From a virus, in UHGV virus genome UHGV-0140594: a DNA stretch of 11,465 nucleotides. One strand, written 5' to 3'. This document shows, in pieces, positions 1,101 to 4,600 of the stretch; position 1 is the first letter of the stretch, and the number at the start of each line of letters is the position of its first letter. The position numbers and the translations under genes were made by a program. The notes beneath the pieces were generated by a model, which did no database searches, was not told the origin of the DNA, and saw only the letters and a list, made by a program, of their open reading frames with translations.

Positions 1101-1120
1101 TACTGTATGTATATCCAGTT
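1101..1120 (+). promoter_or_regulatory. Candidate LexA (SOS) operator TACTGTATGTATATCCAGTT
   Basis: CTG-N10-CAG core with AT-rich spacer; 17 of 20 positions match the E. coli LexA consensus TACTGTATATATATACAGTA. It sits 22 bp upstream of the ATG at 1143 in an AT-rich 119-bp intergenic region. Confidence 0.55.
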
Positions 1121-1142
1121 ATTTATTGCTTGTGGGGGCTAA

Positions 1143-1349
1143 ATGGATCTTTTGGAGGCGTCGGCACAGCTGGAACGCATTGAGTTATTGGCCAAAATTG
1201 CCCATGTTTACGAAAGTAACCAGAGAGAAAAAACAATCGCTTTGGCCTGGATTGGAGAGCTTGCGGGAGAGGTTCGCGAAATAGTTAAAAAGGAAGGGCA
1301 ACGCCCCCAGAATGGGGGCATTTCAGGCGGCGGGAGTCGCTTTCAGTAG
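1143..1349 (+). CDS. Small hypothetical protein (68 aa) preceded by the SOS box; possible Tum-like antirepressor or moron (function unknown)
   Basis: ATG at 1143 with GGGGG Shine-Dalgarno 4 nt upstream (tgtgggggctaaATG). Predicted helical N-terminal part and Gly-rich tail (GGISGGGSRFQ). Its 3' end overlaps the 3' end of the convergent ogr-like gene by 27 nt. Confidence 0.45.
   Translation: MDLLEASAQLERIELLAKIAHVYESNQREKTIALAWIGELAGEVREIVKKEGQRPQNGGISGGGSRFQ
1303..1319. terminator. GC-rich hairpin GCCCCCA-GAA-TGGGGGC at the convergent gene ends (weak terminator candidate)
   Basis: Perfect 7-bp stem with 3-nt loop, immediately past the ogr-like stop on the minus strand. U-tracts are poor on both strands (AUUUC on plus; U5 lies 11 nt away on minus). 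Confidence 0.3.
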
Positions 1350-1592
1350 GTCTAATGCCATCTGGCGCTGATCGGGTGAAAGTGCATTCAGTATTTTTTG
1401 CACCATCGCATCACCCGTTTTAGCGCTGGGGCTGAGAGTGTGGGAGAACGTCAGATTCATAACAAACGTGTGGCCACACTCAACATCTGAACAGGCACAG
1501 TAAATATCGGCAATCTGCCGGTGCTTCCTGTTTGTTTTACGAATAACAGCCTTTGAGCCGCATTCCGGGCATTCGATTTTCAGAACTCGCAT
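1323..1592 (-). CDS. ogr: Ogr/Delta/B-family zinc-finger late-gene transcription activator
   Basis: MRVLKIECPECG...CACSDVEC gives C-x2-C-x22-C-x4-C, the zinc-finger spacing of P2 Ogr / 186 B / P4 Delta. ATG at 1592 has GGAG 8 nt upstream. The ORF track extends it to an ATG at 1646 that overlaps the portal stop (ATGA); 1592 is preferred because the family places the first Cys within about 8 residues of the N-terminus. Confidence 0.8.
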   Translation of the reverse strand: MRVLKIECPECGSKAVIRKTNRKHRQIADIYCACSDVECGHTFVMNLTFSHTLSPSAKTGDAMVQKILNALSPDQRQMALDLLKATPAA

Positions 1593-1642
1593 ATTCCATG
1601 CTCCAGCTGTTAAATGATGCCTGGATTTTAGCCTCTTTCGCC

Positions 1643-2704
1643 TCATGCCGCACCCTTATCCGTTGATTCTGTGTAACTTAAATCAAAGTTAAGGTGTAGC
1701 CTTTCCGGTATTTCAGGATCGTTGTTAACGGCCAGCATGAAACGGCGCTGGATGGGGGCAATTTCGCTTTTCTTGTAAATGCGTTCAGCCTTTTCAACAT
1801 CCCCCAGTCCGGCAGTGTTCTGCGGGCCAATACCGGCGAGGCCGGCAGGGAAACGGTGCGCGTTCAGAATGTCCTGGGCGCTGATGTTTTTGATGTTGGC
1901 AAATTCATCCTTCGCGGAAATATCCCCCATTTCAATGAATTTGATGGCGTCGCCGTCTCCACCGGGAATGTTTACAAGGATGGTGGAGAAGTTACCGATC
2001 CCTTTGCTGTCACGCAGCTGCTGTTCAATTTCTTCCTCCATTTCGTCCGTCATGCTGGGATCGCGAGTATAAAGAATACCGCCTGTGTGCGCACCGTTGT
2101 GGTAATAGCGGCGTCGGAAAATGACCGCTTCACTGTTAAGTAACGCGGAATGCACACCGCCGATGTAGTCCGGCAGTCCGTAGATATGCTGTTGTGGGTC
2201 ATACATTTTGATGAAGATAATATCTTCTTCTGGCCATACCTGCGGTTCTCCTTCCTGTAACACCACGTAGTCACCGGGCTTATCCAGGGCGTTATCTCTG
2301 ACTTTGCGGCGGCGAATATACAGACCGGGCAAGGGTTCAAGTGCGATCACGTCGCCCCAGCCGTTACGAATTTTGGCAATCGCAATATCCCCAAAGGTTA
2401 TATAGTCAAACGCTGCCGCTTCCAGCTGGTCGTGAATAAGCCCGCCCCCCAGGTAGTCTGAAACAATCATGTTTTTGCGGGCGTGAATGATGCCGCCGTG
2501 CTGACCGTTAAGATTAATCAGCTGTGCGAGTGCCAGCCGGTCAATCGGCTGGGTGAAGTGATCGGCGGCATTGTCGTACCAGATATCACGGTAATCTGTG
2601 CCGGTAGTCAGAACCGGTTCAGGTTTGCCGAATGTGATAATGCTCATCTTTTTTGATTTGTCGCCGCGCTGGTCGCGCTTAACAAAGCGTTTCTTTTTAC
2701 TCAT
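1643..2704 (-). CDS. Q: Portal protein (P2 gpQ-like)
   Basis: 353 aa, directly downstream of the terminase ATPase gene on the same strand with an ATGA stop/start overlap at 2701-2704; AAGGAAAGAGG ribosome-binding site upstream. Size and position match P2 Q; sequence similarity is recalled, not computed. Confidence 0.8.
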   Translation of the reverse strand: MSKKKRFVKRDQRGDKSKKMSIITFGKPEPVLTTGTDYRDIWYDNAADHFTQPIDRLALAQLINLNGQHGGIIHARKNMIVSDYLGGGLIHDQLEAAAFDYITFGDIAIAKIRNGWGDVIALEPLPGLYIRRRKVRDNALDKPGDYVVLQEGEPQVWPEEDIIFIKMYDPQQHIYGLPDYIGGVHSALLNSEAVIFRRRYYHNGAHTGGILYTRDPSMTDEMEEEIEQQLRDSKGIGNFSTILVNIPGGDGDAIKFIEMGDISAKDEFANIKNISAQDILNAHRFPAGLAGIGPQNTAGLGDVEKAERIYKKSEIAPIQRRFMLAVNNDPEIPERLHLNFDLSYTESTDKGAA

Positions 2705-4239
2705 GCTGCCTCTTTCCTTACACCCCAGCGGGATTTAGGTTTGTTTTCATAGTTAAGGGGTTCGTTATGCAGACCGTGGGTAATCGCCCAGAACGCCTCC
2801 GCGTGGCCAGTATCCTGGCTGCGGTCAGCGACAAACGTCATGGCGTTGCCGCTTTGTGTGGTGGTTCGGCGCACAGACATAAAGCTGGCCGCGATCTCTT
2901 TCAGGTTTTTATCCCACTCAATACGTTGGCTTTCCACCACGTCCACCGCTTTCAGCACCAGTTGATTTTTGGTGTTCAGGTCGTAACGAATAGGGACGGC
3001 CACGCGCATGGCAAAATGCTGAATGTTGTCAAAAACACCCTGGCCAATGCCGGTAACGTCTACTCCCAGATAAGTGAAGTTGTATTTTTTGAACAACTGC
3101 TCGATCTGTTTTGCCTGATACCGGAAGTTCATGCCTTTCCAGTAAATCACCTTCAGAACGCGGAACTTCTCCACGGCGAGCATCGGCGGGGCGATGATGA
3201 CAAAACAAGACAAATCACCGCTGCGAGCCGGGTCAAAGCCGCCCCAAACTGGCCTGTCACCGAATGGCCGCGCTGCATCAGGGTTGTGATCCTGCCAGGT
3301 GTCGATTTCAACGCCGCAGGCTTCCAGGTCAGAAAAGCTGAAAACGGAATCTTTGCTGTCAACGAACACGCACATATAGAGCATGTTAAAAGTGGCGTCG
3401 TTGTAGCGGTTGCGAAGTTTCTCGATGTTCGCCAGGTTGAAACCGCCCGCAATGGCATCTTCCATCGTAATGACGTAGCGCCATTGCCCATCCGGGCAGA
3501 GTCGCCCGCCGTCACGCATGTCGTTAAAGGACGGAAACTTAATGGCCGCACGTTTTTTACTGCCCTGTTTCCACTCATCGCCCGTCCAGAACGGGTAAGC
3601 CTGGTGCGTTTTTGCCGATGGCGTTGAAAAATAGGTGGTGCGCCACTTGTCATGTGTGGCCATTGCGCTGGCCACTTCGTTAAGTTTTGCAAAGTTTGGC
3701 ACCCAGAAATATTCGTCACAGTACAGGTGGCCACTGTAGGACTGGGCGGTGTTTTTGTTGGTGGAGAGAAAACGCAGTTCTGCGCCGTTGCTTAAGCGGA
3801 TCGGGTTGCCGGTTAGCGTAATACCGAAATACTGCTCTGCAATATTCACGATGTAAGACCGGAACACTTCAGCCTGTGCCTTTGACGCTGACAGAAAGAT
3901 TTGCGGATCGCCGGTCATCACCGCGTTTTCAAACGCTTCAAACGCAAAATACCAGGTCGCACCGATCTGGCGGCTTTTCAGGATGTTCCTGACAAGCTGG
4001 CCAATGTTATTGCGCAGGTGTTTCTGATATTCAAAAAGATGTTCTTCAGCCCATGCGTCAAAGTCCTCCTGCGTCAGCGACGTAATATCGTTTTTCTTGT
4101 ATTTCCGTTTGCTGCGTGATTCGTCGTCATTGTTGTCCCGCGCAGCTGCTTGCCCGGAACTCTGACCGCTGGCCATTTTCTCTTTGTGTTTATTACTCTG
4201 CGCACGCAGTTTCGTGGCATGAGCAATGAGCATGTCCAT
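2701..4239 (-). CDS. P: Terminase large (ATPase) subunit, gpP-like, main body; N-terminal domain is encoded upstream in another frame
   Basis: 512-aa ORF with a Walker-A-like KSRQIGAT motif and acidic motifs typical of terminase ATPase/nuclease; P2-like position upstream of the portal gene. Its reading frame stays open upstream of the annotated Met to 4281. Confidence 0.85.
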   Translation of the reverse strand: MDMLIAHATKLRAQSNKHKEKMASGQSSGQAAARDNNDDESRSKRKYKKNDITSLTQEDFDAWAEEHLFEYQKHLRNNIGQLVRNILKSRQIGATWYFAFEAFENAVMTGDPQIFLSASKAQAEVFRSYIVNIAEQYFGITLTGNPIRLSNGAELRFLSTNKNTAQSYSGHLYCDEYFWVPNFAKLNEVASAMATHDKWRTTYFSTPSAKTHQAYPFWTGDEWKQGSKKRAAIKFPSFNDMRDGGRLCPDGQWRYVITMEDAIAGGFNLANIEKLRNRYNDATFNMLYMCVFVDSKDSVFSFSDLEACGVEIDTWQDHNPDAARPFGDRPVWGGFDPARSGDLSCFVIIAPPMLAVEKFRVLKVIYWKGMNFRYQAKQIEQLFKKYNFTYLGVDVTGIGQGVFDNIQHFAMRVAVPIRYDLNTKNQLVLKAVDVVESQRIEWDKNLKEIAASFMSVRRTTTQSGNAMTFVADRSQDTGHAEAFWAITHGLHNEPLNYENKPKSRWGVRKEAA

Positions 4240-4244
4240 TTCTT

Positions 4245-4439
4245 TCAGGTCGAGATCGGTTTTGTTATCGCGGCTGTGCTTTCAAAACTGAGCAAATCCG
4301 CCCAGCTGTATTTCTCCGCCCAGTAGTAAACGATCCGCGCATTCGGCAGATTTAATTCAGATGCGATTTCCTTTGGCGTATAGCGGCGCAGATAAAGTGC
4401 GCGAACAACGCCTTTTAATTCTTCAGAGTATTTAGCCAT
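4245..4439 (-). CDS. P: Terminase large subunit N-terminal helix-turn-helix segment (gpP N-terminal-like), in a different frame from the ATPase body
   Basis: 64-aa ORF ...VVRALYLRRYTPKEIASELNLPNARIVYYWAEKYSW... resembles the N-terminal DNA-binding domain of gpP-type terminases. It ends at TGA 4245-4247, only 5 nt before the Met of the 512-aa ORF, and the two frames overlap open across 4248-4281. Confidence 0.6.
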   Translation of the reverse strand: MAKYSEELKGVVRALYLRRYTPKEIASELNLPNARIVYYWAEKYSWADLLSFESTAAITKPIST

Positions 4440-4493
4440 GCGGATAATTATGCCGTGGCTGTGATGAAAAAACGGTGGTGTTAATTCGTGTCT

Positions 4494-4518
4494 GTTCGGT
4501 AAAGCGTTATAACCGAAC
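4494..4518. promoter_or_regulatory. Perfect inverted repeat GTTCGGT-N11-ACCGAAC in the divergent late promoter region; candidate activator binding site
   Basis: 7-bp perfect dyad centred near 4506 in the 161-bp gap between the leftward terminase-portal operon and the rightward scaffold-capsid operon, roughly 55 bp from plausible -10 elements on either side. The P2-type TGT-N12-ACA motif itself is absent. Confidence 0.4.
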
Positions 4519-4600
4519 TGTTCAGAATAAAGCGTAATGCGGTGGTGGTTTTATTTGGCAATAATTGGTTTGCAGCGTCAGGGAGTGGAACAGGGGGGAT

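Follow-up and report, generated by a model that had tools for sequence, protein, structure and literature searches.

The DNA analysed here, an 11,465-nucleotide (nt) stretch of the viral genome UHGV-0140594 that is called the window throughout, carries at positions 1323–1646 on the minus strand a gene for an Ogr/Delta-type zinc-finger protein that, to judge from its sequence and gene context, is most likely the transcriptional activator of the late genes in this P2-family prophage. The window is an Escherichia coli prophage of the ESSI-2/Quadragintavirus type of the Peduoviridae. Its positions 1 to 4.6 kb share 97% identity with Escherichia phage ESSI2_ev040 (Peduoviridae, Quadragintavirus; ev040 in the following) and about 80% with Cronobacter phage ESSI-2, and positions 1000–1800 match prophages in six complete E. 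coli genomes at 100%. The Peduoviridae relatives thus found span 80–97% nucleotide identity, and the activator gene is surrounded by P2-type genes for terminase, portal, scaffold, capsid and gpA. In the window, replication gene A is followed by an open reading frame (ORF) with a LexA-box-like site and then, on the opposite strand, by the activator, portal and terminase genes; divergent from the terminase gene run scaffold, capsid and small terminase, and then the head, tail and lysis genes. The same gene order was found in ev040, ESSI-2, Yersinia phage YenM324 and E. coli 1919D3. The portal gene, an ORF of 353 amino acids at positions 1643–2704 (minus strand), was recognized by a Phage_portal match and by phrog_68 (E value 1.9e-118). 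It lies directly upstream of the activator gene in the same orientation, and the activator gene is the last one of the leftward terminase–portal unit, a location that an earlier note on this DNA had given and that the ORFs and the relatives bear out.

In order to compare this arrangement, 80 species-level genomic loci were fetched by means of the finger motif, all of them anchored on MRVLKI..C. The activator gene directly follows the portal gene in 47 of the 80 loci. For phage K139, a 2021 paper had already placed the ogr homologue between the portal and the replication genes and had speculated on its timing (PMC8537503). The P2 record has ogr after the tail gene D, at the end of the F-E-T-U-D (FETUD) tail operon, as the earlier note had stated; the note was wrong, by contrast, in putting gene B of phage 186 near tum, for the 186 record has B after D as well. 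Both records show a promoter of the gene's own in the gap after D and a terminator that ends this transcript as well as that of the late operon. The note had set the present placement against P2 and 186, and the difference as such is real, but it is not an oddity: it is typical of a large clade and published for K139. Post-portal placement stands out only in comparison with P2 and 186; in ESSI-2-, YenM324- and K139-type Peduoviridae it is the norm. This phage group was already known to have the gene in this position, and the gene is a routine, already annotated Ogr/Delta member.

The long ORF of 107 amino acids (1323–1646, minus strand), the ATG of which overlaps the portal stop codon, corresponds to the RefSeq-style annotation. 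RefSeq holds an identical gene of 324 nt as “ogr/Delta-like zinc finger family protein” (WP_012602735.1, 107 amino acids), which is also the call of the Prokaryotic Genome Annotation Pipeline (PGAP). In the annotation of ev040 the same gene has 89 amino acids, and several gene callers likewise give 89. In a profile search, which had been named beforehand as the decisive test of the assignment to this zinc-finger family, the Pfam model Ogr_Delta (PF04606) was matched over its full length (1–47 of 47) by residues 25–71 (positions 1434–1574, minus strand), with an E value of 9.1e-20 and 70.8 bits at a cut-off of 26.3; the protein also matches PHROG 603, “transcriptional regulator”, with an E value of 7e-45. 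The zinc ligands Cys26, Cys29, Cys52 and Cys57 are spaced as CX2CX22CX4C, which is the four-cysteine motif cited for the family (PMC3931495), and align with the cysteines of P2 Ogr and 186 B. The extra cysteine that had been noticed in the finger is Cys50; it stands in place of His28 of both Ogr and B and is invariant in this subfamily. Pairwise differences within the finger amount to about 0.16–0.17, 0.06 and 0.51 at the first, second and third codon position, respectively, and, on the sequences compared, the finger is under strong purifying selection. Searches with the activator yielded no relatives in the PDB and no NCBIfam family above its cut-off.

Behind the finger follows a conserved C-terminal part (residues 72–107; positions 1326–1433, minus strand), which consists of an SPSAKTG linker and two predicted helices. 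In the alignment it is missing in P2 Ogr and 186 B and common to K139 Orf13, which agrees with the C-terminal extension described in the note. The length given there, about 89 amino acids and more than in Ogr and B, holds as well: it is the length obtained from the internal ATG, and both P2 Ogr and 186 B have 72 amino acids. Differences by codon position are 0.10/0.07/0.51 in the linker, which is constrained like the finger, and 0.44/0.22/0.58 in the 23 codons of the helical part behind it, where purifying selection is clear. Because linker and helical codons are both under such selection, the C-terminal part is a real, selected piece of the protein and not an annotation artefact. The helices were predicted at residues 73–88 and 91–102, the only part of a structure model that reached a predicted local distance difference test score (pLDDT) of about 73; the model, built from a 25-sequence alignment, had a mean pLDDT of 55.6 and was too poor for a fold search. 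In P2 Ogr, truncation of the C-terminus is tolerated without loss of activity. By alignment and gene neighbourhood, the window protein belongs to the Ogr/Delta family as a C4 zinc-finger protein with a single domain and falls within the subfamily that includes K139 Orf13: its gene lies between portal and replication genes with the portal gene co-oriented, and the product has the SPSAKT linker and the helical C-terminus.

Two start codons come into question for this protein. The outer ATG (1646–1644) forms an ATGA overlap (1643–1646, minus strand) with the portal stop codon TGA (1645–1643). Four nt before it lies a Shine–Dalgarno-like AAGGGTG (1651–1657), which also encodes the C-terminal K-G-A of the portal protein; its GGTG is weak evidence for a Shine–Dalgarno function, since this element always forms part of the portal gene, for which it usually provides a Gly codon. 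Initiation here adds the 18-residue extension MRRKRLKSRHHLTAGAWN with six Lys or Arg and two His residues, in agreement with the 18 basic residues that the note had expected from an upstream ATG at 1646. The inner ATG at 1592 gives the 89-amino-acid form (1323–1592, minus strand), which begins with MRVLKIECPECG and is preceded at a distance of 8 nt by GGAG (1601–1604). Every relative has the inner start as ATG or, rarely, GTG, and a purine-rich GGAG or GGAA was found about 8 nt upstream of it in all clades. In Proteus, in Vibrio and in a second class of Xenorhabdus loci, in-frame stop codons 3–13 codons upstream of the inner start make a longer form impossible. Since inner start and Shine–Dalgarno sequence are universal, even where there is no upstream ORF, the 89-amino-acid form is probably the ancestral product. 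The preservation of GGAG/GGAA also accounts for the seemingly conserved Gly15 of the long form.

The outer start is tied to the end of the portal gene. In 48 portal-adjacent sequences it overlaps the portal stop codon 45 times, 41 times as ATGA (32) or TAATG (9) and four times in another way; of the remaining three, one has a gap of +3 and two lack the ATG. The four other overlaps belong to Photorhabdus loci (L018, L028, L032 and L034), where the portal frame runs 15 nt past the usual stop up to the TAA of a conserved TAAAAT (see below) and overlaps the long activator ORF by 19 nt. Xenorhabdus portal genes of the portal-adjacent clade show the same ATGA overlap as the window. The 18-codon extension contains no in-frame stop codon in 44 distinct sequences, compared to 112 and 26 stop codons in the other two frames, and no frame-breaking insertions or deletions were found in portal-adjacent sequences. 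A start codon on the upstream stop codon, its conservation and a frame that is kept open are the sequence features of translational coupling, and reinitiation is predicted here. Differences in the extension are almost flat over the codon positions (0.41/0.37/0.48), so that its amino acids are barely constrained; as we read it, the extension would be translated while its amino-acid sequence hardly matters. Overall, the sequence comparison suggests that both starts are in use, with a portal-coupled long form and an independent short form. The same had been put forward in the note, and the idea is favoured by the conserved inner start, the portal-stop-coupled outer start, the open frame and a -10-like motif between the two starts.

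This motif, GCTAAAAT at positions 1625–1632 (minus strand), reads GnTAAAAT and may be the extended -10 element of a promoter inside the gene, with a transcript start predicted at about 1618. Along the portal/activator junction, conservation peaks at GGTG, ATGA, TAAAAT, GGAG and the inner ATG. TAAAAT occupies positions 1630–1625, 32 nt before the inner ATG, and was found in 43 of 44 sequences; the G at -14 is present in 42 of the 44, the T at -15 in only 13. The codons that cover the motif vary in meaning while its bases stay fixed. Codon 5, which stands for nine different amino acids, has G as its third base in 42 of 44 sequences; codon 6 is always NTA (GTA 18, CTA 16, TTA 7, ATA 2; Leu, Val or Ile), and the common codons for Leu, Val and Ile are never used; codon 7 is AAA and codon 8, which encodes Ser, Leu, Phe or Tyr, begins with T in 43 of 44 each. 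GnTAAAAT is thus held at the nucleotide and not at the protein level. The P2 record annotates TAAAAT(G) as the -10 element of Pogr, 34 nt before the ogr ATG, and in the 186 record the -10 element of pB lies 31 nt before the B ATG. As the -10 element of the window lies inside the extension, a transcript from about 1618 would yield only the short form. With regard to RNA structure, the alifold energy at the portal/activator junction was 0 and no better than that of column shuffles. A TCCAG/CTGGA pairing, considered as a structure that hides the inner Shine–Dalgarno sequence, is seen in the window; it was discarded as it is not conserved in relatives.

A candidate target of the activator lies in the 161-bp gap between terminase and scaffold genes. 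An alignment of about 40 diverged loci revealed three conserved elements in this gap: a perfect dyad TTCGG-N13-CCGAA (4495–4517, no strand assigned), midway between the divergent late promoters; the -10-like hexamer CATAAT of the leftward promoter (4447–4452, minus strand); and the -10-like hexamer AATAAT of the rightward promoter, which serves scaffold and onward (4560–4565, plus strand). From the dyad centre to the centre of either hexamer the distance is 56.5 bp, a spacing that nearly all loci keep, with N13 or N14 between the half-sites. The perfect dyad occurs only once in the window and only once in 26.7 kb of ev040, and copies with two mismatches are at chance level; it was found once per locus in 44 of 87 loci. 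Xenorhabdus loci with an Ogr-like gene away from the portal gene also have this dyad close by, flanked on one side by a -10-like hexamer at a distance of 57 bp. In the only such locus examined closely (L047), the dyad lies just downstream of the Ogr-like gene and ahead of ORFs of 207, 370 and 151 amino acids, of which the latter two match in size the window ORFs of 375 and 151 amino acids, whose ev040 counterparts are tail sheath and tail protein. The terminase–scaffold gap of K139 and Vibrio phage kappa contains TTCGG-N14-CCGAA. In the P2 record, a single activator site is common to pP and pO and centred 55–56 bp from the mapped starts. If transcription is assumed to start 7 nt after the hexamers, the dyad of the window lies at about -66 and thus one helical turn further upstream than the P2 site. 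These features make it likely that the dyad is the binding site of the activator and replaces the TGT-N12-ACA of P2.

As an observation in its own right, CATAAT ends 7 nt before the terminase ATG (4437–4452, minus strand), so that the terminase message is predicted to be leaderless or nearly so. Relatives from Xenorhabdus and Photorhabdus have instead a spacer of about 40 nt with an AAGGA-type ribosome-binding site before the terminase gene.

Taken together, we propose the following course of events. Early in lytic growth, host RNA polymerase would start at the weak extended -10 element GnTAAAAT (1632–1625) inside the extension, and this early transcript would yield only the 89-amino-acid protein, translated by means of the GGAG and ATG at 1604–1590. 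The protein would bind the TTCGG-N13-CCGAA dyad, about 66 bp upstream of both predicted starts, and would turn on the leftward promoter (terminase, portal, activator) and the rightward promoter (scaffold, capsid, tail, lysis), presumably via contacts with RNA polymerase as for Ogr. The leftward late transcript would carry the activator gene itself, and ribosomes that finish the portal gene would restart at the overlapping ATG and produce the 107-amino-acid form, which would result in a positive feedback. The logic would be that of P2 ogr, which has its own promoter and read-through from the late FETUD operon, here realized on a different late operon. We assign a probability of roughly 60% to this reading, that is, to a late activator with a short form from an internal promoter, a long form by coupling to the portal gene, and the TTCGG dyad as its target. 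Its more far-reaching version is tentative and should be taken with some doubt: one gene might provide two activator isoforms on a timer, the short one before late transcription and the basic-tailed, portal-coupled long one after it, in combination with a new type of operator, TTCGG-N13/14-CCGAA, that would lie one helical turn further upstream than in P2 and act on two divergent promoters from a single site. The long form may also differ from the short form in activity or stability.

Several observations weigh against the proposal. The extension evolves almost neutrally, and the long form may be without a distinct role. A simple sigma-70 scan of positions 900–2300 gave no minus-strand promoter near the junction, and the -35 region is poor. 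The TAA of TAAAAT is in frame with the portal gene, which in the four Photorhabdus loci actually ends on it, and part of the motif could be a back-up portal stop. No operator-like sequence common to the ev040 immunity region and the junction was detected with k = 9–13, and silencing in the lysogen is left unexplained; CI control of the internal promoter in the manner of 186 pB, which had been considered, was dropped on the same result. Finally, the P2-type TGT-N12-ACA is absent from positions 4440–4600, and the window has two matches to it, no more than expected by chance and both within genes. Because the canonical site is missing from the promoter region, the dyad was assigned as target by conservation and position only.

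Some of these points would fit an alternative in which only the 107-amino-acid protein is made, coupled to the portal gene, with Met19 as a mere internal residue and TAAAAT as a back-up stop, an RNA signal or a dead ancestral promoter. The poor -35 region and the in-frame TAA with its use in four loci go along with this, as do the conservation of the outer ATG, of the overlap with the portal stop codon and of the open frame, and the PGAP call of 107 amino acids. However, an activator made solely from a promoter that depends on it could not start the cascade. Moreover, the GGAG before Met19 is kept in all clades, position 19 is always ATG or GTG, and not the TAA alone but the whole hexamer and the G at -14 are fixed, in a geometry that agrees with the P2 and 186 promoters; no conserved RNA structure was found at the junction. 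We consider this alternative unlikely. The opposite alternative, in which only the 89-amino-acid protein is made and the upstream 18 codons are an untranslated leader or promoter that is open by chance, has on its side the ev040 annotation and several gene callers, the nearly unconstrained amino acids of the extension and its absence from distant relatives. The difficulty is the open frame itself, which persists in 44 distinct and strongly diverged sequences without stop codons or frame-breaking insertions or deletions: composition-matched shuffles gave a chance of about 0.28 per sequence, which amounts to about 3e-7 over 11 lineages with less than 70% nucleotide identity to each other in the extension. 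The start codon is furthermore placed exactly on the portal stop codon in 45 of 48 cases, and it is quite improbable that the short form is the only product. That the protein is a zinc ribbon with a different function, for instance in restriction alleviation, as for Lar, or in packaging as an accessory that binds DNA, might be read from weak, sub-threshold matches to Lar and other zinc ribbons and from the adjoining packaging genes, but is highly improbable given that the Ogr_Delta score is far above its cut-off while every other match is below its own, that the annotation of ev040 shows no second Ogr-like gene among the 37 of its 41 features that were examined, and that a conserved dyad with fixed promoter geometry accompanies the subfamily in phages and tail-gene loci.

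Under the proposal of two forms, the inconsistent public annotation of the gene, with 89 amino acids in some records and 106–107 in others, may reflect a real product in each case. The idea of two starts, which the sequence comparison supports, gains a concrete mechanism: the short form would come from an internal promoter and the long form from coupling to the portal gene. The TTCGG dyad with its fixed spacing provides a simple and testable marker for late promoters in a large group of P2-family prophages, and it also covers related tail-gene loci in Enterobacterales and Vibrio. Such promoters do not follow the TGT-N12-ACA rule of the textbooks. Neither the annotation point nor the marker bears on a long-standing open question, and the gene belongs to routine phage biology.

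At the 3' end of the activator gene, a terminator-like hairpin with a U-run was found after the stop codon (1287–1322, minus strand; 10 bp, -17 kcal/mol, z only -1.85). Its stem (1322–1300) starts right after the stop codon, the U-run begins 8 nt beyond the main stem, and a second, overlapping and weaker hairpin abuts the U-run. The hairpin resembles the terminator after P2 ogr, although the call is not a strong one. It sits inside a convergent ORF of 68 amino acids (1143–1349, plus strand), which overlaps the 3' end of the activator gene tail-to-tail by 27 nt and has a LexA-box-like site, CTGTATGTATATCCAG (1103–1118), 24 nt upstream; site and ORF together cover positions 1103–1349 (plus strand). 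The convergence on an ORF with an SOS box that the earlier note had pointed out is thus present. The 68-amino-acid product matches phrog_698 and shows 32% identity to the N-terminal 38 amino acids of 186 Tum (pairwise E value 1e-5), and the ORF occupies, after gene A, the same map position as tum in 186. Its homologues all bear the name “hypothetical”, and E. coli 1919D3 has no annotation for it. From match and position, it is possibly a minimal SOS-induced antirepressor.

LexA-box-like sites were also seen at other Ogr-like genes. A perfect CTGT-N8-ACAG lies just upstream of the gene in Vibrio phage kappa (L083, 4438–4453) and in two Aliivibrio loci (L078, L080), which suggests a direct SOS control of the late activator in kappa/K139-type and Aliivibrio loci. 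In six Xenorhabdus loci (L039, L042, L047, L048, L050 and L056), where the Ogr-like gene does not adjoin the portal gene, a near-palindrome TGTATCAGTGATATCACAT and a motif GGTAAAAT occur about 85–105 nt upstream of the Ogr-like start; these may be operator and promoter of those genes. In Haemophilus phage HP1, a tblastn match to the activator was obtained at U24159.1 10447–10635 (minus strand; 41% identity, E value 3e-9), where no gene is annotated.

The gene for the terminase large subunit (2701–4439, minus strand) is split in the window into ORFs of 64 and 512 amino acids by a deletion at about position 4270, where 37 bp are lost relative to near-identical relatives and the frame is shifted. 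All 27 complete E. coli genomes that cover the stretch carry these 37 bp, and the intact terminase has 591 amino acids in the RefSeq annotation. DNA packaging may perhaps be disabled in the window's copy, or the deletion may be a sequence error. The P2 cos sequence was not found in the window with up to three mismatches. One contig of the comparison set (L003, JAEWTL010000126.1), filed under “MAG: Bacillota bacterium”, shares 99% identity with this E. coli prophage and is probably mis-binned.

Among known systems, the same gene in the same place is found in Yersinia phage vB_YenM_324 (gp11), Cronobacter phage ESSI-2 (gp32) and ev040 (gp26), with 64–100% identity. These are annotated as “transcriptional regulator”, with the long (106 amino acids) or the short (89 amino acids) start, and a literature search yielded no experimental study of any of the three. 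The Delta protein of satellite P4 belongs to the same Pfam family and activates P2-type late promoters; it is a fusion of two Ogr-like domains with about 166 amino acids, whereas the window protein is single-domain. With 186 B, the window protein has family and cysteine motif in common. The -10 element of pB lies 31 nt before its ATG, a distance similar to that of the candidate element in the window, the terminator tB ends pB and late transcripts, and 186 has the LexA-controlled tum after gene A. B differs in that it follows tail gene D and has, at 72 amino acids, neither the C-terminal helical part nor the N-terminal extension. Furthermore, the 186 record annotates two sites at which CI represses pB, and no operator-like match was found at the junction of the window.

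P2 Ogr resembles the window protein in the CX2CX22CX4C motif and in being encoded at the end of a late operon. Just downstream of ogr lies a terminator, where the window has a terminator-like hairpin, and just upstream a promoter of its own with a -10 TAAAAT about 32–34 nt before the ATG, where the window has its candidate element of the same sequence; one activator site is common to the divergent P and O promoters. However, the identity is only 21–28% and confined to the finger, and Ogr, with 72 amino acids, lacks the helical C-terminus conserved here. The ogr gene comes after tail gene D, does not overlap the gene upstream and has no second start. The P2 site is TGT-N12-ACA at -55/-56 (PMC3931495), compared to TTCGG-N13-CCGAA at about -66 as predicted here. 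The Vibrio proteins K139 Orf13 and kappa Kp19 differ from the window in that a separate ORF of 71 amino acids (kp20) lies between portal and activator, in the lack of an in-frame extension, and in the perfect LexA-box-like CTGT-N8-ACAG upstream of the activator gene. They share, on the other hand, 56–57% identity with the window protein, including the SPSAKT linker and the helical C-terminus, the position of the gene between portal and replication genes with the portal gene co-oriented, and a dyad between terminase and scaffold, which is TTCGG-N14-CCGAA there and has an N13 spacer in the window.

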